NCBI GenBank assembly: GCA_051294905.1
Contig: CM119371.1
Span: 27,158,001-27,222,000 of the forward strand
DNA from: Botryllus schlosseri
Lineage: Eukaryota
Direction: 5' to 3'
Length of the DNA: 64,000 nucleotides
Positions 27,940-62,730 of the stretch are shown here, piece by piece. How positions within the stretch are numbered: position 1 is the first letter of the stretch; each line of letters begins with the position of its first letter. Made by a program: the position numbers and the translations under genes. Below the pieces are notes generated by a model. The model made no database searches, had not been told where the DNA came from, and saw only the letters and a list, made by a program, of their open reading frames with translations.

Positions 27940-28252
27940 TCAGAATCTTCTTCGGAACTTCATCTCGGAGAACTGAATGTAATGATAAGTTGAAGGAAAA
28001 TTCTGGTCCTCCCACACAAAGCTATCCACGCCCCTCGTGCGAAATCCATTGAGATGGCTGTCGGCACAGGCGTGAAACCACCAAGCTCCTTTCCAGTAAG
28101 AAGCGCAATTCACACTTGAAGCTGCGTCGTGATCTGCGTCTTTCGTTGTGAATGGTTGATTGTTATGCCCCCCGAGTGAATCCGTGGCATTTCCGGAGTA
28201 TCCGGACACGTTCAATATGTAGTTGGTGGAGCCAGGTCCGACTCGAAAATTG
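27940..28252 (-). CDS. FReP paralog A exon 5 (C-terminal part of fibrinogen domain)
   Basis: tag|C AAT TTT CGA...; [20 protein letters not shown]...GAWWFHAC...SEMKFRRRF*. Confidence 0.93.
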
Positions 28253-31200
28253 CTAAAATAACATGATGCGAAAAGTCTTGAATATGTAAGTAATATGCAA
28301 TATCGATTTTTTTTTCTAACCTCATTGTGTAACAAAATTTGATTTGTAGATTCTCAAATCTCCCACTACACACGGAGGAAAAGTAATGTTTTCATTACCA
28401 AAATATTCAATAAATAATATAAATACTCATACGTCCAGCACTTGAAGCAAATAAATGAAGCGGCGTTGAAAGAGCTGTGATACAGCAAGATAATCTCGAA
28501 ACCAGAGGTGGTACGTAACGAAATACTTCTACTGCAAGTAGATTTCGTCTACTTGTACTACTTCCTCTTGTAGTTATGTTTTGAATACTTCTAATTCTAC
28601 ATGACATATTTCAGTTTTCTAGGTAAAATTAGGCCTAGAATACTTACTTTTTTACTTACTTGGGAATAGCTACTTCCACTTATGATCGAGTAGAAATTTA
28701 CGAAGTTACTTTTACTTCTACCCACGCTGGCTATTTTGACCACACCTCGCCTCGAATCCCCACAAAACAGATACGGAAAATACGGTGCCAAATAACAATA
28801 TGCTTGCAGTATTTATGCGAGGTGGACCTGAAAGCACAGGGTCGCTACAAGCTCTAGCTCTAGAAATTCATTCCGTTTCGTCCGCTTTTAAACATAATTA
28901 TCACGAAACGGTGCGATTAATATACGCGTACGGGGTCGATAAAACGTGCATTGAAGCATATTGCTGATTGATGCGAGTTTAGGAAATTTGAGTTTCTACA
29001 TATTCGGTTCGCAAAAATAGCATCTATCTTGTTATCACGAGCTAGGGCTTCTACTGTATAGTTTCCTGGCGAAAATAATCTTCATAAAATCAGAATTTTT
29101 GATCAAACCAACCGATACAACCTGTATCCGGCATAGGTAATTCTACCGTCTATTCCAGGGGTCTCAAACTTGAATGTGATCGCCGGCCAGTTTCCTAGTT
29201 TTTGATAACGTCGCGGACCGCAGAATCAGCAATATAGGGGTATTTAACGTATTTCCAAGTAAATATTGTATGACGGGACCTTGCAGATTGACATCCCCCA
29301 TCTCTTGGAAATGCGATTTACTAATGCAGTAATTCACGTCAGTATGCCACAAAAATTATATTTTGAGATATCTGAATAGCATTGCTGTGTTACCTGGTCG
29401 AGAGTACGCATAATTTGAAAAACAAACATGGGATGTGGACACCAAGCTAGAGGAAAAACGCATCATGTTATCATAAGAGATGCTGCGTTATAATTTGCAG
29501 CTATAGCGGACATTTGGATAGCCAAAAGTATAGGTAAAATATATTTGATTGATCTGATGTCACATCATTTGAGAAGTGTGGCGTAATCCAGGTTTCGGGT
29601 CTGTTCCTGATGAGTAGGCTATTGATCTTGTCAATGTCCAAGTCGAATTGATACAGCGTTAGAGTAACTTTCAAATAATCGAACAGATACATCACAATAT
29701 AAATGTATTAGTAGGCCTAAATGTGACATAGTATTACAAACGCCCATCGCCAAAACAACCCATGGAGTTTGTCGCGGTGGCGCGTACAACTACGCTACTC
29801 ATGACTCAACAACATGACTCAACAAAATGAAGAAATTTTTTGCAGCTTCCGGGGGGTCTCTGAGTATATAATCGTAGCTTCTGACGGGTCCACACCCTAA
29901 TTGTTACGGACTTAATATTAGTACGTCATATGGAACGGGATGACATGATGTGTATATTCATATTTCTTCTTTTCCCACCAACTTCAGCAGCGGACCCGGA
30001 TCCGAAAAGTACAGACTCACCTTAGGAATATAATACCGAAAGAATAAAGACAATGAACGAGGTTTTAGTGGGACTAGTGACTAAAGTCAATAACAAAAAC
30101 CATGACCTACCGGTACTTGGCAGACAAATGAACTCCATGTAGCGTGATCATATTAATTTTCAACTCATAATCTCCTTCCCGTGTCATCTGATGTAACGCC
30201 TCCAGTCCTGATGAAAGATAATATCAGGTATCATAACTCTGCGGAATCGGTGTGACAAGAGCATTAGATTATTGACATATGTATTTGGAGCTGTTCATAA
30301 CGAATTGCGCTACCACAGACTTATCATGTCTGGTTTATACATCATATCTTATTCGTGATACATTTTGATTACCTTATTTCGGAAGTAAAAACGTTTAATA
30401 CTAGTAATTCATCAACATCTGTATAAAAATACCAAAATCAATGGTGGCGGTATAGCGTAGTGCCACGATCCACCGCTGCAACAGTAATAGGTTAAGGATT
30501 CCAGTTCGGCCGAGGTCGAATCTAAAATCCCAATTCAAATTTTGGATATTTATCTAGGCTACTCCTCGTCATCTCCATCGAGTAAGTAGTGTCTCATAGC
30601 ATAAGGGAACAGGGGAAGTGCCGATCACAGGATCACATAATTTTAAGCTGTTGCACAATCCCGATCACTTTATGCCAACATTTGAAGGTTGAAACCAAGC
30701 ATTCATCTTTGGCTCGCTGTTCGCAGTACACAGCAAGTTGGAACCTATGTGTTTTCGAACGTATATCTCATCGGTATCCAGGCCGTGTGCCTTTGGACCA
30801 GGGGCGGGCAACATACCAGTGTTGGGATCAAGTCACTACCTTCGAGTCACGAGTCATTTCGAGCCATTGCACATTTTGACTCGAGTCAAGTCAAGTCAAT
30901 CGATTTTCGAAGGTGACTCGAGTCAAGTCAAGTCACTGGATTTTTGGAGGTGACTCGAGTCAAGTCGAGTCAAGTCAAGTCAAGTCAAGTCAAGTCAAGT
31001 CAAGTCAAGTCAAGTCACGAGTCAAGTCACAATTCAAGTCAAGTTAGCTTTTCGAAGTATGAGGCATGATTATGTCATTGCATTTTGCTGGGTGTCTGAA
31101 ATACAGATTGAGTGGTCATCGATTCTGAACCAATGAACGAATACAGAGTTAAATATACACGCAAGAAGGCGCTGTATCGCTCATATATACGTAGAACTGC

Positions 31201-34200
31201 TAAACTACGTAAGTAATTGCATAGTCTCAGTTTATAGTTACCAGCCAAAATAGATAATAGAGAAACGAATTGATGAGATACAATATACATTCGAGCCTGC
31301 GCCAATGGTTGATGACTATATAAACTATATTCGAATTCAAATTCAATTAACCAAGACGTTTGATTAAGGTAAGAACAGAAAGCTGAAATACACATTTTAC
31401 TATTAAATTACTTCACTATACTAGTTTACGACTTCGTAAGCTATAAGCTTCGATCACTTCGTTTGCGGTCAATTTATTTGGGAAAGAACAATGGAGGCAC
31501 AGTGAAACGCATGATCATTGAATGATTAGTCGCTCTCACGGGTTACACGAGCGTTTCGCGAGCAACCCGATCATATGCAAGATACAATGATTTTTATCGA
31601 CACCGATTACTTGATGACTTGAAATTGACTCGTGAATTTTGCTCCGAGTCACGAGTCAATCCACACTTTTGATACGCCGAGTCAAGTCAAGTCAAGTCAT
31701 TTTAGAAAAGTGACTCGAGTCAAGTCAAGTCATACGAAAAAGGTGACTCGAGTCTGACGCGTGTCAAGTCATGACTCGAGTCATCCCAACACTGCAACAT
31801 ACGGCCGGGGAAGGGATTTTGAGCGGCCCGCAGATAGTCTCAGGTTATTTATGATAATGTGGCCTGCGGCTAAAGAGAGGTGCCAATGGAACTATTTGCT
31901 ATGTTCAAGTCTACAGAAATTTGCGAGCAAACATTTTCGACCATGAAAACTAACAATCGAACTCAGGGGTGGGCAATTATATTTTCTCCGTTGGCCAAAT
32001 GAGAAGCAGAAAATATAATGGCGGGCCGACTAAAGTTTTTTAGCTGTATGCCACAGCGGTATTATTTTTTTGTTTTAATTGAAAGCAGTGAATTGCAGTG
32101 TTAGTGTATGCTGCTCAGTGTATATGTTCAGCGAGAAGTAAGTGACGGTTAATTACCAACAAATAATATTTTCAGCCGTCATATTTCGAACAATGTTAAA
32201 CATGAAACATTTTTAATTCTCTATAAAACCCTATCCGCGTTTTTCTATCAGGAAATTAAACTGTATTTGAGATACTACAGGCAATAAATTCAATAAATAC
32301 TGTTTTGACCGCTATGCTTTCAACCTAAAATTCACATTATATACGATTTATTCCTTGTATATGTGGCAAGGTTGTAACCAAGTCACAAGGCTCCAAGTCG
32401 CAAGTCAATATCACTTTTATAGTTTTGACTCGAGTCATTTTCAATTCACCACCGAGTCAAGTCCGAGTCAAGGTAGCAAGATGAGGGTCGAGTCCGAGTC
32501 ATGGTATTATGACTCGAGCCCGAGTCATGGTATTATGACTCGAGCCCGAGTCCAAGTCATCGTGTTGACAGCTCAATTACAGTCTTGTCAAACCCACTGT
32601 TATAACTCTGTCTGGTGATATCCAATGGTTCGCATTTATAACGTACTATAATTTCCCTCCGTTTTAGCAGTTTTGGTTGCATTTTCGAGTAGCAGTCAGT
32701 GTTGGGATGACTCGAGTCACCTTTTTCGTATGACTAGACTTGACTCGAGTCACTTTGCTAAAATGACTTGACTTAACTCGGCGTATCAGAAATGTGAATA
32801 GACTCGTGACTCGGAGCAAAATTCACGAGTCAATTTCAAGTCATCAAGTAATCGGCGTCGATAAAAATCACTATATCTTGCATAAGTTTGGATTGTTCGC
32901 GAAACGCTGGTGTAACCCGTGAGAGCGACCAGTCATTCAATGATCGTACGTTTTACTGAGGCTCCATTGTTTTCTCGCAAATAAATTGACATGAAACGAA
33001 ATGATCGAAGCTTACAGCTTATGTTGTCGTGAACTAGTAGTAAAGTAATTTAATAGCAAATATATATTTCTGTAATCTTTTCTTACCCTAACCAAACCTC
33101 TTGTTTTATTGAATTGAATTTGGATAGAGTTTATATAGTTCTCAACCATATGCACAAGCTCGAATTGTATCATCTCAATTTGTAAATGGGTAATTTATAG
33201 TATTAATTTATCGCTTTGACTCGAGTCAACCCAAGAAAACCGAGTGACTTGACATTAACTCGAGACAAAATGTTCAATAACTCGAAGTGACTCGTGACTC
33301 GAAGGTAGTGACTTGATCCCAACACTGGTACCAGTACCAACAGACGAAATCTCAATAGCGTAGGTACTTATACCTTCGAAATTACAAGGAATGACGGTCT
33401 GGCCGTCATGTGCAATGAATCGAGTCCAAGTCGAGTCAATACACAGATTTACTCGAGTTGAGTCATTTTCATATTTCGAGCGAATGGCTCGAGTCAAGTC
33501 GAGTCATGACTCGAGTCATTACAACCCTGATATGTGGATAAATACACGATTACAGAATCCATTTAGGAATCCGGCCCGCCAAGTACTTCATTTTCATATA
33601 TCCGGCCCGCCGACTGGAGAAGTTGCCCGCCCCTGCTTTGGACCAACCGGGTGGGGACCGATGATACGCTTGTGCAATTAATTTTAAACTTTCAAACGGC
33701 ATATATTCATGTGTATATCCGCGGTAGGTAGAGCGTGGACCAAAGTGTTGAGCCAGCAAAAGCTCCGATTTTGGTGGATGAAGGTTTGGGGGGTAGAGAA
33801 CAAATTATAATTTTTGATCGATTGGTACCACATCTCTACAATACGACTTGTCGACCAGATTTACCTTCGGGAGCACATAGGTGAGTGATTGGGTATACAT
33901 TTGCGTCGTTACTGAACTTTACTTTTATCTGAATAACAACGCCGACTAATATACATTGAATGTTTGCAGGCGCATGAATAAGATGCATCTTACATCCACT
34001 GCGACTCAAATTTAGTTCAATGTTTATCATTATGTAAAGCCTACATGTACTCGTACCTAACCAGATATTTTCAAAATCTCCAAATCCGTTCACGTAGTCA
34101 GCCCAATTTCGGAAGAAATCGACATTGCCGTTCTTTCTTCGTTGAAAAACCTGTAATGGAAGTGGAAATGAAGCTTATCCTCTTGAACTTATGAAACATT

Positions 34201-34873
34201 CAACATACGGTCCAGTTTCCTCCTTCATCTCTGACGTCACAAAACACGTTCTTGAATCCGATTCCGGGAATGAGTAATCCGACCACACCACCAGTGTGGC
34301 TGTGTGCTAATTGTGACTCGATTTGAGCGCCTTCGCAGTTACTCGGTAAAAGAGTGTGAATAGCTACAAATCAGAGGTGTGATTTCAGAAAATTTGTTCC
34401 GAAACCCCATCAATCAACAACACACCTTTCTTTATTTTTCTATCGACGGTTCCTTCGGTCACAATGCTGTCAAAGATACTCCGGGGCCGAAGCCATTGTG
34501 CGCTATGGGCGGGATACGGTAAATATTCAAGCGTGCTTCCACCAGCAAGTCGAATCGTTCCATTAGCGGGTCGAATCCTTCCATTGGCGGGTAGAATCAT
34601 TCCATTAGCGTGCCCATAAAGCCGCCTAGGTAGCCGTGGTAAAGGTGTCCATTCCGACGTTCTATTTGGGATTCTTGATGACCTCGTTCGTGATTTGAAG
34701 TATTCTTCGACCAAAGTCTTGTTATAGTTGCTCAGACGCCCCTGTCGGCACCAGAGGCCCCGGCACCCAATGGGTTTAGTTCTCGTTCCATTCTTGATTT
34801 TTGAAGCCGTCGTTTGTGATGCGAGGAAAAGTATAACCAGCAGAAAGGTTATGGCACTTGTTGGTGTTTCCAT
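27940..34873 (-). CDS. Fibrinogen-related protein (FReP/ficolin-tenascin-like fibrinogen C domain), paralog A; 5 exons complement(34873-34426, 34363-34209, 34150-34057, 30207-30111, 28252-27940); 368 aa
   Basis: Signal peptide [27 protein letters not shown] junctions with consistent phases 1,0,1,2 give one open frame of 1107 nt. FReD motifs: [36 protein letters not shown]....[11 protein letters not shown]...[38 protein letters not shown]....GAWWF..C..SHLNG, SEMKFRR. Exon phases and the sizes of exons 2-5 are identical in paralog B. Confidence 0.93.
28503..28750. mobile_element. TACTT-rich MITE in FReP A intron 4 (counterpart ~58183-58435 in paralog B)
   Basis: cagaggtggtacgtaacgaaatactt... 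at the same intronic position in both paralogs. Confidence 0.6.
30111..30207 (-). CDS. FReP paralog A exon 4
   Basis: cag|[33 protein letters not shown]|gtaggt; too short to appear in the ORF track. Confidence 0.9.
30443..30668 (+). mobile_element. Putative tRNA-derived SINE in FReP A intron 3 (counterpart ~60515-61172 in B)
   Basis: A-box-like GGTGGCGGTATAGCGTAGTG, degenerate B-box, core shared with the 12530 copy. Confidence 0.5.
30817..31794 (+). mobile_element. CAGTGTTGGGAT-family hAT MITE with (CAAGT)n array
   Basis: TIR CAGTGTTGGGAT, TSD CAACATAC; (CAAGT)n at ~30961-31040. Confidence 0.9.
32367..33529. mobile_element. CAGGGTTGTAA-family MITE
   Basis: caaggttgtaa...ttacaaccctg, TSD ATATGTGG. 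Confidence 0.87.
32697..33327 (-). mobile_element. CAGTGTTGGGAT-family MITE nested in 32367-33529, inverted relative to 30817-31794
   Basis: TIR CAGTGTTGGGAT; TSD GTAGCAGT/GTACCAGT (7/8). Confidence 0.85.
34057..34363 (-). CDS. FReP paralog A exons 2 (34363-34209) and 3 (34150-34057)
   Basis: [11 protein letters not shown]...[13 protein letters not shown] | [32 protein letters not shown]; 58-bp GT..AG intron between them. Confidence 0.92.
34426..34873 (-). CDS. FReP paralog A exon 1 (signal peptide + variable N-terminal region)
   Basis: ATG at 34873, hydrophobic leader, donor AAAG|GTGTGT at 34426/34425. Confidence 0.88.
34550..34612 (-). repeat. 21-bp coding tandem repeat x3 in FReP A exon 1 ([21 protein letters not shown])
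   Basis: tcgaatcgttccattagcggg / tcgaatccttccattggcggg / tagaatcattccattagcgtg. Confidence 0.85.
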
Positions 34874-37800
34874 CTAATTTTTCAAATATATTTGATTAAG
34901 AGTTTGTGCTTAGACCTGTGCAGCATTGGTACCGTGAATCCAGTGAATGATTTCAGCCTATTATCATAATAGAACTCAATTTAGATACGTAACGGAAAAC
35001 AGTTATTAGTTTGTTGGTCAATACATGACGTTTTCAGAAGTACCTGGTAACTTCCCATACTACACTTACGCGAAGGCAGTTTACGTTTGAAAGACCTGAT
35101 ACAAACCCGAAGATATTGACAAATATATCACCGCATTTCAAATTAAATGCATGAATATGTCATGGTATAGATATGTAATTTGTTGGTTTATGGGCATTAC
35201 GGTCTATATACCCCTTGCACTCCTGAAATAAATATCGTGTTCATGGAATCATAATTGCCGGCCTGGCGACGAGACATCCTCTCTGCTATGCGTAGGGATA
35301 ACTCTCTCGTAACTGAATGTATCGACCAAACACGTTCCTTTATATACCATCGTTTCAGGCGAAACTCTAGCTTTACTGAACCACCGATCGACTTCTCTCG
35401 GGTATATTCAAAGGTAGGAGTGCCCTACAGCATATCAACTGAGTGATTCCCGAAACGAACAACAATACCAAGAACACTAATCAATACTGCTTTCCGGTGC
35501 GTTAATTGATATTATGTGTGGTAAGAATTAAGTGCCCTACAGCTAGGTCGACCGAGTGATTGATGAATCCCGCAGCAATACCATGGACATTAGTTGATAC
35601 TGCTTCCCAGTACGTCACTAACCGATGATTTGCTTCCGGCTATATATTTTTTATGCTAATAGGAACCACGACAGAACGCCTCAACTGAAAAAAATAGTAC
35701 GCGGCTTCCTTTTTCTGAATACCATTATGTAAATTGCTCCATTTAAAACATTCAAAACCCGCAGCATTACCAGGAACATAGCCTACTTGTTACTCCTTCT
35801 CAATACCCGAATACCAGATAATTTATTCCCTGGAATGTATTTGTTCATATTCAAGCGGAGCACGGTATAAAGCCTTTATTAATAAATCATTTCACGGTTT
35901 CATTTTCTGAATAGAATTACGTAAATTTTTCGATCTGAAATACTTTCAATCGCTGAATAATGGGTACATACATTTAAATATTATATAATCGCCGAAATCA
36001 GCACCGCTATCGCTCGAACAGCACACAACGCAGAGTGGTCCAGCTTTCGTGAATTTTATCAGGATAACAGCGGGTTTATAGATGTCGCGCATTTATACCG
36101 TTGTTCGTTTTACAAAGCGATTGTTAAGCTAATTTCCAATATCTTCGTCGTATATACCACCTTTTAAGGAACACAGCTTGATAGCTCTCATTGACCATGT
36201 GATGCCAATCTCTGTAACTTTGCTATTGTGCCAAAAGCTCCAAAGGTTTTGAAATCACCTGTAAATTCCTTTCCTTTTGATTTTCTTCCTAATATTATGC
36301 ATTTTCAAACGTCGTGATAATGTTGTCGATGAATCTGTCCGATTTTGTATTGTCTCTAGTACCCGTCATTATGACATCATCAAAGTAGGAATGATTTACA
36401 ATGTCGAAGAATGTACCATTTCTGTGGTAAAAAGTGAATCATTGCCATTAGGTAGTCGCAACCAAAAATAATTTGGTACCTTTGTACCATGATTATTTCA
36501 TACCGAGATGTGACCTTGCTGATCGTTGGTCAGGAAAATGTCGCTATCATGATTCTTCGTAGCGTTGGTAAAAATGTTTTGGATTTTATGATACCATCAA
36601 TCGAGGTTTCAAAATATTCATGGTGGGAAGTTCGTATCCATCGAGACCAGTTTTCTCGGTGAAAAACAAAACCGCCGAAGTCTTTATTTTCGTTACGGCG
36701 GAAATGACTCTTACTGATCGTCTAGTGTACTACAATAAAATCTCAGCTAGGATTCGAGAACACGTATCATTGTGCATTGCCCTGATGCTAAATTGACCGG
36801 CATGATAATTATAGTTGCAGCCATGCAATGTAGATAGGCATGGCGTGGAAAATCAACGAACCGTGAGATAAACAGGACACCAAAGTCACGAAGACACGAT
36901 GAAAATGTTATTCGATAAGCGAAGGGTGAAACACAGGAGCAGCTCCTTGTACCATTCTCTAAGGAGAGGTGGATTCGTTGGACGTAACGCATCAGCGCAT
37001 AACGAATGCATGACGTATTACCATTGGGTTATCCGCAAGCAATATAGACGAATGGAAATATACCACATTCGCGTGAGCGTGTAAGGCAATCCAGTTTTGG
37101 AGCGGGAATTCTGTTTGTATGACGTAATGCAGCATCGCATAGCCGACAAACGTTTGTAATATTGTCGTTGGTGTATATCTACAAATAATGTCTAAAAAAT
37201 GGTATTGACCTACGCGTGAGATCGTACAAAGATTCCGATTTCGGTCATCGGACTAGCGTATCGATTGGCTTATTTGAGAGTATTAAACTGAATTTATTCT
37301 CCGAAACGAGAACATTGAAGTTGACTTGTAATGGGAATATTGCATTACTGCATCAAAATTTATTGCATGGTCGATTCAGTTATGGTTATACGCAGAACTA
37401 TGATAAATTATTGCAACACATAGGCGCATCGAGCGATATTTCGTATTTCACATTGATGCTGGAAACTCCTAATGATGATGTCCGACAATTCATGTGTCCA
37501 ATATATGCATTACACCACGATTGACGATTGTACATGAATCATTTTCTGCTTCAAACGCTACACATATTACAGTTATACCTCTTACGATGGTAAGCCACCT
37601 CTGTGCGCAAGTGAATAAATTTCTCGCGTTGGCAAAGTTATTTCAACTGTTTCGTGACGTGACGTGACCTGTGTGTCGATCCATCAGAATACTTTGTAAG
37701 CATATCATTTTCAGTATAAACTGAATTGGTATACAGTAACATGTCTATCGATGGCAGGTTGCTTTACGAGTTCAAATATTATTACAGGTATGCATTCACA

Positions 37801-47590: not shown

Positions 47591-50500
47591 AAAGAAGTTC
47601 GTATTATCCATTAATGCCCTCGAATGCATAAAAATGTACAAAATGCCCGTATGCGACTGGAAAATATGCTACAGTAGCCTAAATTTAATATTAGCTCATA
47701 AGTACATTGTAATAATGTTCTGCGGCCCGCAGCGTTTTTTGCTGTTAAAATGCGGCCAGTTATACAAGGGAAGTTGAGAACCCATGTTCTAGCCCGTAGC
47801 ATTAGCTATACAGAATGTACACCATTCCTCCAAGTGCCGACGACACGAAAGAGGATGCCGCAATGGAACTAGTGCTCTGAATAAGAGGGTAAACTTTGTC
47901 ATAACTTCACAACGACATTTCAAGAAGTACGCGATTTTGGTGACGGATTCGAAATATCCATAGGAAGATGTGACAGCATTGCTACGGGTATAACTGGAAA
48001 TAGAGGCTGTAAATGTGTAGCTAATTACAACATTGGGAATAGCGAAACATCTCTATTATCATGCTATCATTTCCCCTTGTGGCATTTAGTTCTTGTGATG
48101 GGAAGTCGCTTTCAGAAAAATTCACTTTCCTCCCTTGAAAATCAAACAAATTATATTCAAATAGTGATTTTCGAGTTTTAACAAATATACGTTAGATAAA
48201 GTGGTTGATGCGAATTTTCAATATTTTCGTCGTATTTACCGCCTTCTACTGAACACCGCATGATAGCTGTCATTGGCCATGCGATGTTTTCTATTTTGTC
48301 GCAAAGCCTATGGGGTTTAGAAATCACTTTTTTTATCGTTTCCTTTTGGTGTTCTTCTTTCCAATCGTCGCGATAATTTTGTCGGTGAGCCTTGCAAAAT
48401 CGAGTATCTGACCGATTCCATTCTGATCCATCCAGTAATTTTGACCCCAATCACAGTAGGCATGACTTACAGTGTGCGAGTATACTATTTCTGTTGTCAA
48501 AAGTGAACCAATGTCAGCTTGTCGCCGCCAAAACTAATTTTGTACTTGTGGACCATGAACAATTCATAGCACGAATGTAACTAGCTGAGCGTTGGTTACA
48601 ATAATGTGTATATCATGTTTCCGAATAAATTATGAGGGTAGTATTCGATAACCGAAGTGTCAAACACAGGAGCAGCTCCTTCCATTCTAAAGTGGGAGCT
48701 GGGTTCGTTGGACGTAACGCATCAATGCATAATTGACGATCGCATGACGTATTACCATTGGTTTATCCGCAAGCAATCTCGATGAATGGAACTATACCAC
48801 ATTCGTGCAAGCGCGTAAGGAAGATAACAGGGGGTTTCTAATTATCGCTCATCTATACCGTTCATATCACTACAATCCCATATAACCTCCAACACTATCA
48901 AACCCAGCAAAATAGTACACTAATATCGGACATCTTCCGTGACGCGAAGTCGGCGGCTCTTCTAGCGGATCCCTGGGATATTCTAGCCCGTAGCATTGGC
49001 TATACAGAAGGTACACTAGCGGTATCAGACGAGGCGATGTCGGCGATAATTTCTCTACCATCATGTGAGAGATCGTTGCATTTGATTAGTTTCAGAAGAC
49101 GTTGACGTGTTGCATTTAAACCTGCTCGGGGATAATTGACATCTGCGAATCGGATTTTTGTTGTTGTACAGGTCAAGTACACTGTAAATACTACCGTATT
49201 ATGATCAGTGATGGGCGCATAGTGATTTCTGAAAATCCGAATCCATCCGACAGCTCAAGTCTCTGAGGAGAAATTCTTCCGAATACGAACAACCTCATCG
49301 AAATATCCATGTATATCCGAAAAATCATTTCCATAATCCAGAAAATCCGAATAGAATATTTTTTCCGAAGAATCCCAATTGTGTAGCGGACCTAGACACA
49401 TTTAGGGCGGTAAGCCTTTATAATGGTTCAGAGTTGGCTTGTTTATATTTGCTTGGGCCTTTAACAGAACAACTTCAGAGTGCTAACAGTCCTATAACAA
49501 TGTCCGTTTAGTTGTCGCGCTGACGATTTTTTTATCTTTCGACTTGATGTCAAAAGTCACGTCTGGACAGAATTATCCAGAAAAGTCCGAAACAAAGTAA
49601 CAACTGGCCGAAAATATTCGAAACTAATACTGCGATATGGTTATGATGGCGTTCCAATGTGTTCATGCTGCAATGTCTTGTCGAATGAAACTTTCTCCGA
49701 ACCATGGTAGCATGGTATTTGTAAGGGTAGGTCAAAAAATTAGCACGTGCTTTAACTGCCATAATAGCTGCAGAAGAATGCGCGTGCTGGTGCTACTCGA
49801 AGGTGGTGGGTGCATCCGATTTTGCAACGCCGGCCTATACCGGGTGAGTGAAGCAGCTCAATAATTTAGTACAACATCGCAGTAATTCTTTCGCAATGCC
49901 TCGCCAGAATTTCCGTCCGCCAAACGGCTTGAGCAAAAGTGACGCTATTCAAGTCTCGACACTGGTTTATATATGGATACGCATAAGTGCATCTCCGACT
50001 TCTCTCATCACCGCGATGGTAAAACCAACCCCTACGCTCGGTCGACATCGTCTCGTCTGATACGGCCTTAAAACTCTAATTTCGTCGTGGGCCGGATTCA
50101 AGATTTCAAAATGTTACCTCGCGAGCTTGCTTTTCACTCGAATAACTAAAAGGCATATATATATAATACACAGATCATTGTTTTTTTAAAGGAGCAAGTC
50201 GCAACACGTTTCTACGCGAGCAATGGCATTGGCAAAAATACGATGATTGTCCTGTTGAATACAGCTAAGAACCGTTAAAAAAGCTGCGTTAGCGACGATA
50301 TAGGTTGGCATATTCCGTCTATGCTCTCTTTATGTTAGTCTTAGGCGACGGCAGGCTGCCCTATGAGCGCAAAGCTATAATACTGGCTTGTATTGACACT
50401 GCAATAGAAAAACGTTGAGTAACCACCGACAGATACTCTCTGTCGTATCTTCAAAGGTATGGTAAGAGTCCCTTGCAGCTACATACGACATCTTACTGCT

Positions 50501-51944
50501 TGCGAAACGCACAACAATACCAGGGACATTTCTTGATACTTGAATTGCTTCCCAGTACGTCATTAACAGAGGATTAATTTCCCGACATGTGTTTCTCATA
50601 TTAAAATGGACCACAGTACAACGCTTCTACTATAAGAACAGTAGGCCTATACACGGTGTCATTTTTCTAATGACTATTACGTCAATTGCTCCATTTCACA
50701 AACTCAAAACCACCAGCAACATCGAAAACACTACTTGTTACGGATTCCCAATGTTTATTGCCTGGTAAGTATTTTCTCATGTTCAAACGGACCACGGTAC
50801 AAAGCCTCCAGTCTAAGAACAGTTTACGGTGTCAGTTCCTGCACAACGTCACGTAAATTGCTCGATTTCAAATATTATCAATCATTGAATAGGGGGTATA
50901 CATATTCGATATATTGTATGGCGGCGACATCGGTCTCGATATCGCTCGAACAACGTATAAGGCAGAGTGGTCCAGCTGTCTCAACTTTTATCAAGAAAAC
51001 AGCGAGTTTCCAGTTGTCGCTTATTCATACCGGGCATATCCCCACAATTCCACGAAACCACCAACAACACCGAAGCCCAATATTTTTGAACATTCTTGAA
51101 CAATAATTGACAGCGTTCGTAAGTTTTAGTTATTCTTCCTAGTTTCGAATATATCAACTTCCAATCGGTTAATCTAATCAAGATGATTTTTCTATTAAAA
51201 GAAAAACCAAGTTTAAGCAATATTCTTAAAATATGGGCCATGTTTTAAACATTTTTCATCCATTATGTCGCTATTTCCTTATAGTGTACGTCACAGTGGA
51301 TTGACATTTACATTTGAAAATATAGGGTAAATATAGCTCCTACAATGAAAAAGGCTTCCGACAACTGTCACAAATACCTTGTACCGGGACTTCATTGTTT
51401 TGCAGCGTTTTTACGGTCGGCGATCATCATCATTAGAGCATCCACTCCTTATCAATGATCTATATCTACATGCTGTAACTGTTCAAGCGACCACGATTAC
51501 AAGGGTTCCAGCAACTCCACCTCGTACACGTCGACTGTATTGGGTGCAAATTGTCCGTATGCTAATACTGCATGTGTTTTTCGAAAGTATTAACACAATT
51601 ATAGCATAATTATACAAAGTTTTTTTCGCGACATTTTTGATACAGCACTTGTTTTAACTGCAACCCTGACTGGTAGCAACTTTATGGAGCATACATTGCA
51701 TGCCAATCCAAGTCAGTTGACGCACATTCAAACTCTTCCACTAACTAGAGAATGTGAAGGCAAGTACAAAATTGCAGGATCTGTTTTCGACCAAGAGGCC
51801 ATCGTCACTTCGACAGTGATATAAGAAGACTTTTTGGTTTTACCGATATTCCAAGCAATTTTAAACCATTCCTCTTTGACGTTGTCTTCGATTTTATCAA
51901 TTCCTCGTAATATGAATCGGAGGGATTGACACCTAGCGAGCAAC

Positions 51945-53847
51945 CAGTGGCGGCTCGTGACAATATCGGGTGGTGGGGCAAGGGCTGCAAGCGACTTTTT
52001 ATCAAGATGACGTCACAATGGCGTTTTCCAACGTAAACAAGTAACTTAATGATGGTACGGTAACATGAATTTCCCGGCAACAGTGATTTTAACGTATGTG
52101 CCACGAGAGGTCCGCTGGTGAGCTGTGACTTGAAGTGTGGTAACTGCGTAAACGGCGTACGGAATAAAGATTCAACACGGTTCATGTTCGCATTAGACCT
52201 GACTAATTATCTGCAGAAAGGGAAATGACTATAACTCGAGAGATAGCGTAAGCCTAATTGGAAAGGTCAACGAATTCGGACAGATACGCAATTGTTATCT
52301 CATAGATTGGGCCTGTCCTATTGAATCCAAAACATCATTGTAAAGGACTAAGAATAGCAGCCTCGGAAATTTGGTCTCGGTACAGCATAAGAGATTTTGG
52401 CCTTGAAACTGGAGACTGTAACACGACACATACGTTTTTATTACTGTCTTATAGGTCTGCTGCGAAATCGCCTTTGAAAAATATATTACCGAATAAATAC
52501 GTGGATGAAAGCCCTAAACTTGGTACACTGTTACATGACATTATCGAGAAGTGGCCTCATGGCCCTTTTCGGTATGGTACACTGTCAAAATTAATGCGAA
52601 CAGACCAACACCGAATTTTGCGTAAAATTTACTGAGGAATAGGCTGATCAAGTGACGGGGGGGGGGGGGGGGGGTTGTACGCAAATGGCTTGAAGGCCAC
52701 AATTTCACGGTGAAATTGACATTGGAGAATATACGATCAAAGTAAATATTTGAATGCAAACTGAGAATGATATCATCATCTCACTTAACGTTACCGCAGA
52801 TACACCGGCTTTTGCGTGAAATCCGCAATGTGTTGTAGGCCAAAGTGTCAGATCGGAGCACATCTTTACCATACTCGACCTTGATAACGAAATTACTGCC
52901 CTAATCATTGAGTGTCAACCTTGAGACTTGGCACAGCGTTCGATACTAAAATCAAGACATACCGTGCAAAAGCTTATGACGGATCTAGGTAAGGAGCATC
53001 GTTAAAATCAATAGAGACCAATACCGGCTTTGCGTATAATCTGTTAGCGATAAATGACGAGTCAGCTCTCACTCGAATTAGGAAACGAAATTACCACTAA
53101 CACAGTTCAGTGACAAACTTAAAACTTGGTACAGCGTTCGATACTAACATTAAGACTTACCGTGCCAAATGTCATAACCGATCTCAGTATTGAACACCGT
53201 CAAAACCAATGGATACCAATACCGGCTTTTGAGTAAAATCTGTTTGCGATACATGACGGATCAGCACACACTCAACTTCGGAAACGGAATTACTACCCTA
53301 AACTTTAAGTAGAAACCCTGAAACTTGGGGCAGTGTTAAATACCACCATCACGACATGACATAACAAGTTTTAAGAGTTTTCATGGTGTTAAACCCTATT
53401 AAAATCGACCTATACCAGCAAAGGTCGACTAAACGCATATGACGGTAACAGAGTTCAGCAATAGATACGATTGTTACATCACACCTTAAGGGCACAGAGC
53501 TATCGTGCCCCGGTTGCTCGGTAATTTTATGAATAGGAGAGAGTAAATAACCGTTTCTTTATTGTGCGCGGTTTTGAGAGAATAGACAGTGAAAGCTTGT
53601 TATGAGCGCTACCGGGGCAAGCCCCGGCTAGGCATTCGCAAAGCGAAAACACAGAAGAGAATTCGATTTTCGCATAAACTTCGCTATATATGGGCATTTA
53701 CAAGCGAAAGGACAAGAAGTATACGATTTTCGCTGTGATTTCGGTTCATATAGATAGGTGTGCGTCTATAAATGGTAAAGAATTGTTATTGAACAGAATT
53801 TTAGGTGGGGCAATGCCCCAGTTGCCCTATAGGGCGAGCCGCCACTG
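51945..53847 (-). mobile_element. hAT non-autonomous element CAGTGGCGGCTCG, inverted relative to 16865-20194
   Basis: TIR CAGTGGCGGCTCG, perfect TSD CGAGCAAC. Confidence 0.92.
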
Positions 53848-53879: not shown

Positions 53880-54100
53880 AATGTATTTTTAAAACTTCGA
53901 GTGAAATTATCAGTGGTTTCGCTTTGAATTCCTTTGTTTCGTTAAGACAACTTTTCTTTGACAAATGAGACACATTGGTTTTAAATTTATCTCAGCGAAA
54001 TAAAATTCGTTGTTCCACGCAGAGTCTAAAACCAAGTTGCCGTCGTTAAAGTTATCCGTCCTTGGCGTGATCTGTTCAAGCCTGTTGTGGTGAGTGTACA
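53880..54100 (-). pseudogene. Fragment of Charlie/GTF2IRD2-like hAT transposase N-terminal zinc-finger region
   Basis: AWNNEFYFAEINLKPMCLICQRKV....QRNSKRNH; related to the remnant at ~44900. Confidence 0.7.
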
Positions 54101-55568: not shown

Positions 55569-56819
55569 CAGACTTGTACAAACTAAGCATTTAGTTAGTT
55601 GACGGTCAACTAACTAACCGTTTTTTGAGTAGTTCTAGTTCTAGTTGTAGTTGCGGATTTTGAAAACCGCGTAGTTCTAGTTCTAGTTGTAGTTGCGGAT
55701 TTTGAAAATTCCGTAGTTCTAGTTTTAGTTGTAGTTGCAGATTTTGAAAATTCAGAAGTTCTGGTTCTAGTTTTAGTTGCGCATTTCAAAAAAATATTAG
55801 TTGCCGAACAACTAGAAAACACTCGTGTGTCCTGCCCTGCGCGATGAGAACTCTCCTCGCGTGACAAGTGAGGTTACTTAGGGTTACTAATGAGATCATG
55901 ACAAAGGATCAAATGCTCATTGTTGGATCAAAATTAATACATTGATTATGCCGAGTTCACTGATAACTCGGGCAAATTTACAACAATCGACAGTGCGCAG
56001 CGCACGCGATCTCCCGCTGAGGTTGTTTACTAATTGGAGAGAAGACTATCTGGAATCGCCCAAGGTATCTTTACGAAGGAAATTGCCCGTGTCGTCTCCT
56101 TCTGGCTCTTCAACGCACAGGAAACCGAGACTCTCACTCTTCAACTTTCTACCTCCAAGTCAGTGTCGTCCGCTTTGAAGTTAAATCCGGCCCGTCTGAG
56201 GTGAAAAAGTATGCCCGGGAACAGCGACTACCCCTGGGTCAGAATGTGCTAAACTGTTGGCCGAATATGACTGACTTGCCAGAATTACGGAACTTGGCGA
56301 AAGATTTTCTTGGGATGACTGCGACATCTGCGCCCAGTCAAAGTGCTTTCTCGCATGGTGGGGTTTTGTATTCCCAAAAGCGGGCAAAATTCAACGAAAA
56401 AACATTTTCGCAACTCATGTTGATTCGCTGCAATCAGCAACCGCTGCAGAAAATGGTTTAGTTTATCCTGTACTGATTACAGAATAGTTCTGTCTGTCTG
56501 ATTTTTCAGTAATTTCGTTGTACCGACGTTCATGTGGAAGGCTAGAACGCCGAATTCTAATAAAATAAAAATGAATGTGTTGATTGAGAATTAAATTCAG
56601 TTAGTTGTGTTAGTTGCCGATATTTAAATTTCGTTAGTTCTAGTTATAGTTCTAGTTGCAAGTTTTGACAATTGAGTAGTTCCAGTTCTAGTTCTAGTTG
56701 TGGGATTTGAAAATTGGGTAGTTCTAGTTATAGTTATAGTTGCGAGTCTTAAAAATTGAGTAGTTCTAGTCATAGTTCTAGTTGCGTTTTCTGAAAATTC
56801 AGTAGTTTGTACAAGTTTG
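55569..56819 (+). mobile_element. Internally deleted hAT element with subterminal GTAGTTCTAGTT arrays
   Basis: CAGACTTGTACAAACTA...TAGTTTGTACAAGTTTG, TSD CTGATCAC; tandem arrays at ~55625-55800 and ~56630-56810. Confidence 0.9.
56180..56461 (+). pseudogene. hAT transposase C-terminal dimerisation domain remnant
   Basis: LNCWPN..DLPELRNLAKDFLGMTATSAPSQSAFSHGG.LYSQKRAKF...TFSQLMLIRCN matches the hATC pattern (A-T-S-x-x-S-E-R-x-F-S), with ER degraded to QS. Confidence 0.85.
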
Positions 56820-57647
56820 CTGATCACTTGTAAAAATTGACATGTTTTAACATAGTGTCCGACCTTTAGTGGTGTGGACACACGCAAATCACTCGGATCA
56901 ATGCGATCGGATTACGTAATTCTCACCATCTGTCGGAGGTAATCACGGTACCATTTAGTTTGGCTTCGCGAGCGTTAAATTTGATAAAACAGGTATCAGT
57001 CGAAATACTGCTATGGTACTGATTACGAAAATATAAATTATACTCTGCTCGTGTCCTGGAACACCCCAAATACGCCTTGCATTGTGACGGAGCTGGAGAT
57101 TGTGACGTAATAATACTTTCACTTCTACTTGTGTAGGATCGCCGACTACTCGGCCATATCTGCACTCAAAACTACAATATTATTGGTAAAGCAAGAACAT
57201 TTCTAGTTAACATTTGACTAGCACTTGCGACTATCCTCACAATAAGGCAAATAATTTGCAGAGAGTAAATGTATTAGTTGCAACTACGGTAACAGAAATT
57301 CAACGCTTATCGATATATACGTGAAACGAAGCGAGCCTTAAAATAACGTTAAATACCAGTGATAGGGATTGGAATTGCAATTCCTAGATGATCTGATGTC
57401 TTTCTGGAATACAGGAAAGTGTACGGCCTGGTATTGACCTTTATATGACATTCAATTCTAATCATTTCGAAAATTGAGTTTATAAATTTGCTAGTTGCTT
57501 AAAGTCTACTAACTTCGCCTCGTATAGAGATGGCTCGTTATAATTAAAGGTCTGGTATTCATTAGATAAGGATTATACACGACGTATACATCTCAATGTC
57601 ACTAATACTTCGAGTTAGAACGTTATCAGAGGGAAATGGACGAATCT

Positions 57648-57960
57648 TCATAATCTTCTTCGGAACTTCATCTCGGAGTAATCAAGGTTTTGCCGAGTTG
57701 GAGGAAAATTCAGGTTCGTCCATTCAATTTCAGTCCTGTCCTTCGTGAGACGTGTGTTGAGATTGGCATGGAAGCAGTCAGTATACCACCAAGCTCCGTG
57801 GCTGAGAGAAGCGCAATTCCCACTTGGATATGCGTCATGATCTGCGTCTTTCGTTGTGAATGGTTGGTTATTGTGAAACGCGAGTGAATCTGTGGCGTTT
57901 CCGGAGTATCCGGACACGTCCAATATGTAGTTGGTAGAGCCAGGTCCAATTCGAAAATTA
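57648..57960 (-). CDS. FReP paralog B exon 5
   Basis: [20 protein letters not shown]...[14 protein letters not shown]...SEMKFRRRL*. Confidence 0.93.
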
Positions 57961-60900
57961 CTAAATAACATGATGCGAAAAGTCTTGAATATGAAAGCAA
58001 TACGTAACAAATATTTTTCTAACCTGGGTAACAAAACGGTTCTCAAAACACTCACAATAAACACAGGAAAATAGTATTTTCGTTTGGCAAATTATCAATT
58101 AAATACTTGACATACTGTAGCTACTTGGAGCAATTATATGAAACGGCGTTGAAAAAGCTGTGTTAGCAATTTACATCCAAACCAGAGAGGGACAGTAACG
58201 AAGTACTTGTACTTCAAGTACATGTTGACTACTTGCACTACTTTTTCAAGCAATGTCTGAACTACTTCTACGTCCACTTTACATATTTCAGTATTCTAGG
58301 CAAAATTAGACCTAGAATACTTACATCGATACTTACTTGGGAAAACCTACTTCTGCTTGTGCTCGAGTATAAATTGACGAAAATACTTTTACTTGTACTT
58401 GAGTACGAACCAGGGCTACTTTGACCGCACCACCATAAAACATGTATGGGAAATACAGTGCGAAATAAGAATATACTTGCAGTATTTACGTGAGGCGGAC
58501 TTGAAAGCACAGTGTCATCACAAGCTATACCAATAGGAATCCATTCGGTTCCGTCCGCCTAATTATCACGAAACGATGCGATTAATATGCGCGCACGGTG
58601 TCGATAAAACGTGCAATAAAGAATATTGTTGTTTGATGCGAGTTCAGGAAATTTGAGTTTCTCCATATTCGGTTCGCAAAAACATTATCAATTTCGTAAT
58701 AACAAGCTCGGGCTTCTTTTGTATCGACCTATTCAAAAAAGAAGTTATTTATCAAACCTATCTATGCAAACTATATCCGACCTAGGTAATTCTACAGTCT
58801 ATTCAATATAATTGCATGTAACGTCCATGAATCAATTTTGCAGTAGTTCGCGATTTTCCTTAATCGCGAGAATAATTCCTTCGTATTTGATTTACGTTGA
58901 GCAGCCGAAGGACTGAAATAAGACAACGGATGTGTCTTGTGGGCGAGGTGCCAGAAATGTTAATTAAAACTTTAGTTTATCCATCTATACCAGGGGTGGG
59001 CAAACTACGGCCCGCGGGCCGCATGCGGATCGCAACACCGTTCTGTCCGGCCCGCGAGAGTCTAAAGAAACTCAATAAAAATATTGATAAAGTGCGTACT
59101 AAAAATCGAATTAATGCAGGGATTTGATTAAACTTTTCTTAGTATATTTCACCATGATAATTCTAAGGCAGTGGGTCTCAACCTGGGGGACGCGTGCCCC
59201 TTGGGGTCATGAAAGCATCTGAAGGGAATCGCGAAGCTGAGCTCAACTGAAAATTTTTCCGCGCTTCGCGCGATATACTTACAATTCATAATGATTGCTC
59301 TGTATTTAGTATGAATTTCATATTCAAAAATCTCTCATCAATAGTCGTAACCTCCCATGCCACCAAACTATCCGTTAGGTTTGCTATAGCATCCTGGTTG
59401 CGTTTTGTGATATGACGATAAGGGGGCGCGAAATCTACACATATAGTAGAAGCGTGTTTGAAGCTAACATGGTTATGATGCTGTCAGCATTATGTGTCCT
59501 AAAACTGAACCCAAAGCGGAATTGATAAATCTATAAACAGATCACTGCTCAGTGTGCTCACAGATTTAAATTTCAATTCTGTTCTATGAATCGGGACAAC
59601 AGACTTTCATCTCCTATAGTTTTGACAAATTGGTTATTGAGGTCGACCAGCCTATGAAATCTCACCATTGTTTCTGACGCGTGTACGATATCATCATAAC
59701 AATGTTTGGTTTGTTTCAAATAAGCATATATATTATCTCCATGTCCTCACTATATAATCAAATACCAGCAATATTGCGGTTTGGTTTATGATCCCAATTT
59801 TATAAAGTGCGGCCCGCGAATGGATTCAGATGTTGAATGCGGCCCGCGAGCTCAAAAGTTTGCCCACCCCTGATCTATACCATGATTATTTATTTAATTT
59901 TATTACTTTCTAATTACACGTGAACGGGAAGAGCTATCAGTAATATTAATATATGACGCAAAACTATTTCCTTTCTACACGTGTGAGCTTTGTAATGTAA
60001 AAAAGTAGTTTTATGATTGGCTGACGTCACTTCTGTGAGTGAAAATATCATGGCAACGGGGCCCGGGGAAATTTTCTTATGAAACATCATACTTAGGAAT
60101 ATAATGCCGCAATAAAAAAGACAATGAATTAAATTTTAGTTGGACTAGTGACTAAAGCCAGTAGTAAAAACCAACACCTACCGGTACTTGGCAGACAGAT
60201 GGACTCCACCCGTCGTGATCATATTAATTTTCAACTCATAATCTCCTTCCCGAGTCATCTGATGTAACGCCTCCAGTCCTGATAAAATATTATTTCGCGT
60301 ATCATAACTCAGCGGATTCAGTGCGACAATAGCATTCGATCAATGACATATGCATTCGAAGCTGTTCACAATGAATTGCACTACCACATGCTTATCTTGG
60401 CTGGTCTATGCATCATGTCTTCTTTCTTCATATATTTTAATTACGTAATTTTGGAAGTAAAAACGTTTATTACTAGTAATTCATGAACATTTTTATAAAA
60501 ATACCAAAATCATTGGTGGCGAAATAGCGTATAGTGCTATACGACTAGGGTTGCATTTAAAAAAAATATTAAAACGAACATGTTTAAAACGAGGCCTTTG
60601 ATTGAAACATGTTTTTATTGTTTTTTTTTTTCTGAAGTGATGACGTCACGAATAATCAATTTTGACGTCATACGAGATTAACATTGACAATTGAAAATAA
60701 AGGGAAAATATAGCTCCTTTGACGAAATATCTGTACTATTCCTGTTCAACCGACTAATTTGAGGGTTCCAACCATCCCATATCGATATACTTCGGCTATA
60801 TGGGGTGATAATTTTCCGTAGTCTCATCCAACATGTTTTTGGAAAGTTTTCACACAATTATGGCATGGTTTTACAACTAAAAAAAACAGTTTTTGTAAAG

Positions 60901-62730
60901 GTTTTTGTTTAAAACACTGTAAACAAAGTGTTTTAAAATGCCGTTTGTTGCAAATGGAACCATAGCTACGATCTACAGCTGCAACACTAATAGGTTACGG
61001 ATTCCTGTCCTGTCCGGCCGTGGTCGACTCTAGAATCCAAACTCACTTTTTGGATATTTATCCAGGCTCCACCGCGCCATCTCCATCGGAGCAGTGTCTC
61101 ATAGCATTAGGGGCCAGGGAAAATGCCGATCCCGGGATCACATAATTTTAAGCTATTGTACAATCCCGATCCCGCAATTAATCCAATTAAAACCCCATGT
61201 TCGCTAGAAGGCATTTACCACGGATGGATAAGCTCTATATCTCTAATTTGCTCTTAAATTAGTTCCAATATCAGCTGATGATCATGTACACTCCACATTA
61301 CTGTGCCACTAATACCGACTATGATGGCATAGCAACGAATTGGTCAGATACTTATACTTTTATGCGGTGCTTAAGAAATTTTACCGACATGTATTACTTC
61401 CAAATTTCTATTGTGGGTAGACTACTCTCATATCATTCAACTGCTTTCAGTCATACAGGTATACACCAATGGTACAAGAAACCAGAATCTAGCTCAGAAT
61501 TATACCGCGGTATGAATCGAGTAAAACATTTTATTGCAAACTACGTCTGCACGTAGGAAAGTAGAAAGATATGCATGCCGGCAGGTAGGATTTAGGACCG
61601 TGATATAATTCTGATCTTGGTCCTGTTTTCGTAGTATACAACCCAACACGAATTATAACAGCAATCATTTTTCAATGTGAAGTGTACGGTTTGATGCATA
61701 CTACATGACGTCATATATTTGATTTTCAATACCATCCGTGAGTGTTATTTATTCAATTCAATGATTGAAAACACGCCCACATATAGAGATGATGTATGTC
61801 ATAGTTACATGTGGTAGTTTATCGCTATATTCAGCTATTTCAGCTATATCAGCTATTTGAGCCTATGCCAACATTTGAAGGGGGAAACCAAGCAAGCATC
61901 GTCATTTCCCTTTACTTTTACCTGAGCAATTACGCCGACTAATATAAATTGCATGTTTGTAGCTTTATAAATACGCTGATACTTACATCCACTGCGACTC
62001 GAATTAGTATAGGGTTCATCAATATGCAAAGCCTATATATACTCGTACCTAACCAGAAATCATCAAAATCGCCAAATCCGTTCACGTAGTCAGACCAGTT
62101 TCGGAAGAAATCGACATTACCATTATTTCTTCTCTGAAAAACCTGTAATAGCAGTGGAAACTGATCTCATCCCCTTTAACAAATCACACATTCAACATAC
62201 GGTCCAGTTTCCTCCTTCATCTCTAACGTCACAAAACACGTTCTTGAATCCAATTCCTGGAATGAGTAATCCGACCACACCACCATTGCTTCTGTGTGCT
62301 AATTGTGACTCGATTTGATCGCTTTCGCAGGTACTAGGTAATAGAGCTTTAACAGCTACAAATCATAGGTGTGATTTCAGAAAATTTATTTTGAAAACAA
62401 GTGTTATAACAACACACCTTTCTCTATTTTTCTATCGATGTTTTCTTCGTTCGTAGTCCCGTCAACGTTTCCCCGAAGCGAATTTCTTTGTTCGCACCGG
62501 ATGCAAGCATCGCGAATATCCGTGTTTCCATCTATCCTATTTGTTGGCCTACCTGTAATTGGGTCCATGATACGCTGACCAACGTTATAGTTAGGCGGTT
62601 CCCATTTAAGGCACTGGCGGCAAGCAAAGCCATAGGGCGTCGTTCCATCTGTGATTCTTGATCCCTTCGTTTGTGATGCGAGGAAAAGTACAACCAGCAG
62701 TAAAGTTATGGTACTTGTTGGTATTTCCAT
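57648..62730 (-). CDS. Fibrinogen-related protein, paralog B; 5 exons complement(62730-62418, 62355-62201, 62142-62049, 60278-60182, 57960-57648); 323 aa
   Basis: Signal peptide [27 protein letters not shown] junctions; exons 2-5 are 155/94/97/313 nt as in paralog A; spliced frame is open. Same FReD motifs ([45 protein letters not shown]). Confidence 0.93.
58991..59872. mobile_element. hAT (Charlie-type) MITE in FReP B intron 4
   Basis: CAGGGGTGGGCAAACT...AGTTTGCCCACCCCTG, TSD ATCTATAC. Confidence 0.92.
60182..60278 (-). CDS. FReP paralog B exon 4
   Basis: cag|[33 protein letters not shown]|gtaggt. Confidence 0.9.
60546..60964. mobile_element. MITE (tagggttgcattt...aaatggaaccata) inserted in the SINE of FReP B intron 3
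   Basis: Absent at the paralogous site (30462); imperfect TIR and TSD; interior similar to segment X (41070/51290). Confidence 0.6.
62049..62355 (-). CDS. FReP paralog B exons 2 (62355-62201) and 3 (62142-62049)
   Basis: [11 protein letters not shown]...[13 protein letters not shown] | [32 protein letters not shown]. Confidence 0.92.
62418..62730 (-). CDS. FReP paralog B exon 1
   Basis: ATG at 62730, leader homologous to paralog A, same donor AAAG|GTGTGT. Confidence 0.88.

Follow-up and report, generated by a model that had tools for sequence, protein, structure and literature searches.

Tunicates are the sister group of vertebrates and, to our knowledge, lack adaptive immunity; how they diversify recognition is an open question. 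A locus that raises this question lies in a 64,000-nt stretch of the Botryllus schlosseri genome (GCA_051294905.1, CM119371.1 27,158,001-27,222,000; hereafter the window, whose positions are used throughout), which carries two paralogous genes, A and B, encoding proteins with a fibrinogen-related domain (FReD). An initial annotation had claimed that the two genes differ mostly in the last 60 residues of this domain, at its ligand-binding end, and had read the pattern as diversifying selection on a recognition system of immune lectins or self/non-self gamete factors. Is this end of the protein remodeled by selection, and what might it bind?

Here, we report that A and B are two of four close tandem copies (A-D) within a large dispersed subfamily, that codon models support diversifying selection at their putative ligand-binding end, and that largely the same sites are selected in relatives; the four copies, a variable exon 1, the large subfamily and the shared sites all go beyond the initial annotation. 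We consider it reasonably likely that A-D constitute a diversifying, germline-encoded repertoire of pattern-recognition proteins, presumably secreted, within a birth-and-death family, and the subfamily offers a concrete and testable case of diversified recognition. Expanded and variable fibrinogen-domain lectin families are already known in invertebrates, which limits the surprise. Styela clava has 54 ficolin genes (PMC7540406), and ascidian ficolin transcripts have been tied to haemocytes, complement and allorejection, with ficolin-like transcripts of Botryllus linked to rejection and complement (PMC5465252, PMC2527998). In the open literature, with most subscription journals outside the search, no title or abstract opening among the listed hits concerned site-level positive selection in an ascidian ficolin subfamily lacking the acetyl site.

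Genes A and B diverge most in their last 60 codons

Both genes lie on the minus strand, in five exons with GT-AG introns and an open frame (A, 34873-27940, 368 residues; B, 62730-57648, 323 residues). Exon 5 matches PF00147 at 55.9 bits in A and 56.9 bits in B (cut-off 22), identifying a FReD, and exon 1 of either gene has no Pfam match at E up to 1, hence no immunoglobulin domain. The features are as follows.

34426..34873, minus strand: gene A exon 1; signal-peptide-like hydrophobic start, collagen-free variable region that is basic, Arg/Pro-rich and contains two Cys, neck ending DRKIKK
34209..34363, minus strand: gene A exon 2, start of the FReD; AG/GT ends, open frame
34057..34150, minus strand: gene A exon 3
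30111..30207, minus strand: gene A exon 4
27940..28252, minus strand: gene A exon 5, PF00147 positions 112-219, with P subdomain and stop
27943..28122, minus strand: gene A hypervariable last 60 codons, home of most positively selected sites
62418..62730, minus strand: gene B exon 1; start resembling a signal peptide, collagen-free variable region that contains four Cys, neck ending DRKIEK
62201..62355, minus strand: gene B exon 2
62049..62142, minus strand: gene B exon 3
60182..60278, minus strand: gene B exon 4
57648..57960, minus strand: gene B exon 5, PF00147 positions 112-219
57651..57830, minus strand: gene B hypervariable last 60 codons
57297..57647, minus strand: gene B 3' untranslated region (UTR); matched by RNA reads from B-like haplotypes, which in one single-cell run pile up strand-specifically at the 3' end

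The claimed hypervariability is borne out: between A and B, 34 of the final 60 residues (the tail) are different, as against 20 of the preceding 158 (the head; Fisher test, p = 1.4e-10, with the boundary picked after viewing the data). Broken down by exon, A and B differ at 9/51 residues (exon 2), 5/31 (exon 3), 2/33 (exon 4) and 4/43 (early exon 5); the lengths of 52 and 32 given initially for exons 2 and 3 include split codons. The two tails align without gaps and the 3' flank is alignable. As had also been noted, both copies keep a DADHD motif, whose aspartates we take to be calcium-loop residues, and neither has the canonical Cys-His, the second cysteine being followed by Ala-Asp in gene A and Phe-His in gene B.

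DNA searches of the source genome (495.5 Mb, 219 contigs) located two further close copies, C at C1:27.243-27.248 Mb and D at C1:27.260-27.266 Mb, which lie 21-44 kb past the window's right end. Both are intact, all four frames are open, and the four copies form one clade on exon 5 (support 100/95; bootstrap not fully settled). Exon 1 is strongly variable too, with large indels between copies: the mature N-terminus spans 47-125 residues, the net charge of the variable region runs from +1 to +18 (the latter in A, which has short internal repeats), and the N-terminal segment has two cysteines in A, four in B, two in C and none in D. All four copies share a neck ending DRKI(K/E)K and, by visual inspection, a hydrophobic N-terminus of ~23 residues as their sole hydrophobic stretch. 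A-D show neither a transmembrane segment nor collagen, with no Gly-X-Y run of at least 4 triplets in any exon 1, and they lack EGF, FN3 and long coiled-coil regions.

The basic N-terminal region of gene A (34426-34800) loosely resembles a cationic peptide.

Neutral references separate head from tail. By NG86 counting between A and B, nonsynonymous (dN) and synonymous (dS) divergence are 0.074 and 0.269 over the first 158 domain codons, against 0.482 and 0.164 over the last 60, and at 4-fold degenerate sites 68/344 differ in the head and 13/74 in the tail over the six A-D pairs. Nucleotide divergence is 0.10 in the head, 0.281 in the tail and 0.141-0.267 in nine non-coding segments (introns, intron flanks, UTR, upstream). 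With the head below and the tail above non-coding divergence, the head is therefore constrained and the tail evolves faster than neutral sequence; the tail exceeds all nine segments, contrary to the possibility, raised initially, that it is no more diverged than introns.

The other possibility raised initially, that gene conversion of the upstream exons produced the contrast, was rejected: the head is not homogenised, synonymous and intron divergence are not lower upstream, and synonymous divergence is flat from head to tail. Import of the tail from a distant paralog was also rejected, as tail dS is not raised and A-D are a single clade on exon 5. Pair distances among A-D shift between segments, suggesting some mosaicism.

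Codon models support diversifying selection

Because the head/tail boundary was chosen post hoc, we also ran window-free site models on 218 codons of the four copies, using our own Python code (GY-type, F3x4) and not codeml. Likelihood-ratio test (LRT) statistics were 34.8 for M1a/M2a, 35.1 for M7/M8 and 34.9 for M8a/M8, with omega (dN/dS) ~5.4 on 13% of sites. All three A-D topologies gave 34.4-34.9. The LRT was 21.6 when double and triple base changes were allowed, 24.9 with the gapped loop removed (17.1 with multi-base changes) and 20.0 when the null allowed a separate mutation rate in the tail. In 64 simulations under null models the statistic stayed below 34.8 throughout; the maxima were 5.3 for a plain null (20 runs), 5.8 with rate variation (4 runs), 9.2 with block-wise conversion (20 runs, 2 above 5.99) and 21.4 with multi-base changes (20 runs). 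Diversifying selection at the putative ligand-binding end of A-D, as proposed initially, is supported by these models; the recognition system attached to that proposal is an interpretation of function.

Largely the same sites are selected in a dispersed subfamily

The PF00147 profile gave 871 genome candidates, of which 150 were scored, yielding 151 matches. The exact KDADHD pattern occurs 142 times in the genome, against 2 for a control, and some occurrences will be pseudogenes; A-D are thus members of a dispersed subfamily, in which about 142 loci bear the motif. Terminal exons split into a canonical and a KDADHD group (support 98/90, with some long-branch outsiders on each side). Of the first 30 PF00147 loci, 3 yielded no motif and were left out. 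The histidine after the second cysteine, part of the acetyl site, is present in 23 of 27 canonical-group sequences and in none of the 30 subfamily members read (0/26 in the KDADHD group, 0/4 in A-D). Likewise, the aromatic-Ala/Gly-Asp-Gly loop occurs in 20/27 canonical sequences, 1/26 of the KDADHD group and 0/4 of A-D.

Site models on 19 of the 26 KDADHD members gave an LRT of 100.9, compared with 3.2 for one canonical cluster on C5 (8 sequences, not significant) and a weak 11.9 for another (11 sequences). Unlike these two clusters, the subfamily thus combines loss of the acetyl site with strong selection at defined positions. On a gap-free 42-codon core, 23 of the 26 other members gave 101.3 (64.2 with double changes), with nine selected sites at omega ~5, and five of the seven core sites selected in A-D are among these nine (p=0.0026).

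Canonical acetyl-site FReD exons form big tandem clusters at C5:10.07-10.17 Mb and C5:18.2-21.8 Mb (L002-L030 in part), where positive selection is little or weak.

Selected positions align with the rim of a ligand site

Database proteins contained no full-length match to A-D (three hits at 42-52% identity; the best 150 of 5844 representatives at no more than 63%), and the fold model was therefore restricted to exon 5; an Atlas search returned generic FReD clusters only. Modeled alone, exon 5 (pLDDT 78.9, pTM 0.62; Foldseek template-modeling score ~0.55 to FReD structures) confirms the predicted FReD fold only.

By sequence, the best solved-structure match to exon 5 is FIBCD1 (E 3.5e-17). In its numbering, the family sites are 380, 381, 396, 399, 404, 405, 412, 413 and 416, and the A-D core sites 380, 381, 404, 406, 412, 413 and 415. 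The acetyl pocket of FIBCD1 comprises Tyr405, Cys414, His415, Tyr431, Ala432 and Trp443, with adjacent pockets at His382, His396, Arg412 and Asn413 and a sulfate site at Lys390; Lys381 is the equivalent of ligand-binding Arg186 in tachylectin-5A (PMC3908420, PMC10825690). Nine residues named in the excerpts of these reports as ligand-site residues fall within the core, and five of them are among the nine family sites (p=0.013) and four among the seven A-D sites (p=0.028). In the alignment, the selected positions fall at what would be the rim of ligand site S1, as described for FIBCD1, ficolins and tachylectin-5A.

Around these positions a scaffold is retained. All of A-D keep the P-domain cysteines, DADHD, the WW core and the equivalent of His382 unchanged, and DADHD aligns with the FIBCD1 calcium loop; cysteines, calcium-loop aspartates and His382 equivalent are features shared with FIBCD1, human ficolins and tachylectin-5A. 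Unlike FIBCD1, A-D have A/F/Y/Y in place of His415 and W/S/W/C in place of Tyr405, and the Tyr431-Ala432 loop is 4-5 residues shorter with its motif missing. A-D vary also in this shortened loop and near the Trp443 position.

Most relatives of A-D have ficolin architecture

The neck followed by a splice donor occurs as a pattern 24 times in the genome and in no control. We read exon 1 of 12 relatives, 8 from these hits and 4 from other subfamily loci. These carry a three-Cys motif, and in 9 of the 12 a Gly-X-Y run of 4 to ~21 triplets, downstream of a signal peptide, lies between the Cys motif and the neck; L044, L067 and L080 have no collagen run. Five relatives have a subfamily terminal exon downstream on the same strand within 12 kb, a link by position and not by transcript. 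Collagen, Cys motif and shared neck in the relatives therefore mark the subfamily as ficolin-like and A-D as collagen-less derivatives, and the immune-lectin interpretation of the initial annotation, which concerns an inferred function, gains support from this architecture.

Collagen length varies across subfamily exon-1 sequences (L068, L069, L074-L081, L044, L067), from none to ~21 triplets, with the Cys motif and neck conserved.

Judged on their sequences, A-D fall outside ficolins proper, having no collagen, and outside acetyl-binding FReDs, having no histidine, yet they probably work like members of these groups. Among ascidians, ficolins are known from Halocynthia roretzi and, as ficolin-like ESTs, from Botryllus. 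Like ascidian ficolins, A-D appear to be secreted FReD proteins, with relatives that combine a signal peptide and Cys motif with short collagen, a neck and the FReD, and their subfamily, like the ficolins of Styela clava, is expanded in a styelid (PMC7540406). They differ from ascidian ficolins in lacking collagen, and the subfamily differs in lacking the acetyl-site histidine and in its strong site-level positive selection. Collagen-less ficolin-like proteins occur in invertebrates, and a collagen-less amphioxus ficolin still engages MASP (PMC11312191). The Anopheles FREP/FBN family offers a parallel in its large FReD expansion with varied residues at the tachylectin-5A binding positions, for which broader carbohydrate recognition has been proposed (PMC1242226). 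Unlike that family, the subfamily described here is ficolin-derived and chordate, and omega >1 at shared pocket positions was tested directly; the mosquito account, as excerpted, is descriptive. Unlike gastropod FREPs, which join immunoglobulin-superfamily domains to a FReD, A and B have no N-terminal immunoglobulin domain in exon 1.

The same comparisons bear on a fixed host role, in matrix, tunic, clotting or signaling, in which the variable surface would be escaping pathogen adhesins or inhibitors, or each copy would have adapted once to a different endogenous ligand. Tenascin and angiopoietin-like FReDs score as high as ficolins against exon 5, and positive selection cannot separate a binder from a target. 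Against such a role, A-D lack the EGF, FN3 and long coiled-coil regions, their relatives have ficolin architecture, and the selected sites are enriched at ligand-site positions and not domain-wide. We regard it as unlikely.

Weighing a recognition repertoire

We propose that A-D are a tandem, secreted, collagen-less offshoot of an expanded ascidian ficolin subfamily, in which a constant scaffold and calcium loop would support a pocket rim re-cut in each copy, such that each bears a different calcium-supported binding surface. Members of such a repertoire could serve as soluble opsonins or agglutinins for varied non-self surfaces, and the repertoire would have arisen by duplication in a birth-and-death process, under pressure from changing microbes or parasites. 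Without a collagen stalk, A-D may oligomerise via the neck and the cysteines of the N-terminus, and classical MASP docking may play no part in their action.

Several points weigh against this proposal. As A-D lack both collagen and acetyl site, the ficolin mechanism does not simply transfer to them. The FIBCD1 numbering was counted along the sequence alignment to exon 5 and not by structural superposition, and the structural model covers exon 5 only. The 26 relatives are the best DNA matches to A, not a random sample, and some are possibly pseudogenes; in the codon models of the larger sequence sets, branch lengths were only scaled. For A-D, a single tail omega is 1.59 and not significantly >1 (LRT 2.7), and tail dN exceeds dS in five of six pairs, significantly only for A-B (Fisher p=0.011), with B-C showing dN < dS. 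The head alone gives an LRT of 4.2, which is not significant, and the 42-codon core alone just 7.9. Under the multi-base-change null, 9 of 20 simulations passed 5.99 (nominal 5%), with a maximum of 21.4, and the rate-variation null rests on only 4 replicates.

That a single tail omega is not significantly >1 and that multi-base changes inflate the test would also suit a loss of tail constraint after duplication and loss of the acetyl site, with apparent selection arising from relaxation plus multi-base changes, local mutation rate or conversion. That the canonical histidine and Tyr-Ala loop are gone agrees with this account, as do the segment-wise shifts in pair distance and their hint of mosaicism. 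Yet neutral-ceiling models are rejected both with multi-base changes and with a separate tail rate, the tail outruns every non-coding segment, the same sites are selected in an independent 23-member set, and all four frames are open with structural residues invariant within the tail itself. Relaxed constraint is largely refuted by these results, and we consider it very unlikely as the explanation.

Transcription and B-like haplotypes

Sequencing reads were compared with gene B only (57100-63000) at an 85% identity cut-off. In bulk RNA run X8, all five gene B exon regions and the 3' UTR are covered and three unique intron stretches have zero depth; repeats within the gene B introns draw in reads of other origin. 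In single-cell run X6, reads pile up on one strand to a depth of 244 at 57297-57493, their second mates running in the gene B sense if the library has the usual 3' layout, and run X12 has low depth over gene B exon 5 and UTR only. The coding-exon reads are not assignable to a single copy, and another member of the subfamily contributes part of the exon 5 depth, with loose ends at 57783 and 57819. Over the UTR, the best 90-base window against A, C and D has 73-78% identity, below the cut-off, and the UTR reads are therefore not from A, C or D. Transcription of a B-like gene is thereby shown, and the initial concern that one copy might be silent does not hold for this B-like gene. The index of runs listed no RNA run containing the genes, which counts neither for nor against transcription.

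The RNA UTR reads are B-like yet differ from the assembly's B at many sites. DNA run X2 contains two contigs of similar depth, one identical to B (depth 8.6) and one merely B-like (depth 11.6). The second contig is none of A, C or D; it has 41 differences from B plus 3 gap letters over 57257-57588 (329 bases compared, ~12%) and is either a deeply diverged allele or a fifth copy. Run X8 carries 14 of its 14 listed letters in 57304-57558 and X6 carries 11 of 14, a comparison drawn from 40 of about 1100 variant rows, none within the coding tail; the RNA runs hold further B-like types.

Such haplotypes bring in the self/non-self side of the initial annotation, namely that A-D are polymorphic ligands distinguishing individuals, in allorecognition or gamete compatibility, with the variable end read by a partner receptor. 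The precedent is Ciona v-Themis, a polymorphic, allelic fibrinogen-like ligand of the vitelline coat that acts in multi-allelic self-sterility control and is nested antisense in the first intron of the polycystin-1-like s-Themis gene (PMC9265791). Like v-Themis, A-D are fibrinogen-like, variable ascidian proteins, and protein binding would be in keeping with a secreted FReD whose surface varies and whose acetyl site is missing; the diverged B-like haplotype in X2 and the further types in the RNA runs fit as well. Unlike v-Themis, the A-D cluster has no polycystin-like neighbor, and its variation is seen among paralogs. Exon-by-exon searches, in which small exons are missable, found no PKD-channel (PF08016), REJ (PF02010) or PLAT (PF01477) match near C1:27.18-27.27 Mb, and the analogy that had been drawn with v-Themis loses support accordingly. 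The selected sites are, moreover, shared with the dispersed subfamily of ~142 loci, which fits a repertoire better than a one-locus compatibility system. We judge a compatibility ligand quite unlikely.

Elsewhere in the genome, a tandem pair of REJ plus PKD-channel genes, both with long open frames, at C11:19237463-19261683 is reminiscent of Ciona s-Themis-B/B2. A PKD-channel match in a 902-codon frame (L040, C12:18708378-18754452) lies ~45 kb from a KDADHD-type FReD exon, a proximity that may be due to chance, given the family size.

Returning to the proposed repertoire of pattern-recognition proteins, a bolder version is conceivable, although we hold it to be rather doubtful. It would be an antibody-like, germline-encoded set of well over 100 ficolin-derived proteins that have dropped the acetyl site, vary at fixed pocket-rim positions and carry from 0 to ~21 collagen triplets; A-D would be a collagen-free branch keeping deeply diverged haplotypes (~12%, B 3' UTR), so that individuals would differ in recognition, possibly of each other. 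As A-D differ mainly in 60 residues, they are a ready-made set for specificity-swap work.

Other features of the window and genome

Among the FReD matches, one at C2:30991931-30992443 (L001) covers profile positions 41-220 in a single open frame of 293 codons and is possibly an intron-less retrocopy. Two near-identical GH6-bearing cellulose-synthase-like stretches (L072, L073) lie 43 kb apart at C9:15.02-15.07 Mb, and in their shared exon the second copy appears to break off early. A GH6-bearing exon of the genome has its best cellulose-synthase match in Styela clava (70%), followed by Molgula (63%) and Ciona (51-53%), as fits a tunicate and probably styelid host.

Outside A and B, the 14 longer frames scanned, of 58 listed for the window, gave transposon remnants only. 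Long inverted duplications of 76-96% identity pair 2073-5097 with 12119-15102, 6364-8455 with 9133-11006, and 16865-19816 with 51942-53847. Interleaved with them are long interspersed nuclear element (LINE) reverse-transcriptase and endonuclease fragments at 1307-2026, 15049-15981 and 47210-47668, and a hAT dimerisation fragment lies among them at 56021-56458. The block immediately upstream of gene A is repeated several times in the stretch between the two genes, with 69-79% identity (35530-37744, 41742-44482, 50497-51066); the repeats may be left over from older duplications of that upstream region.

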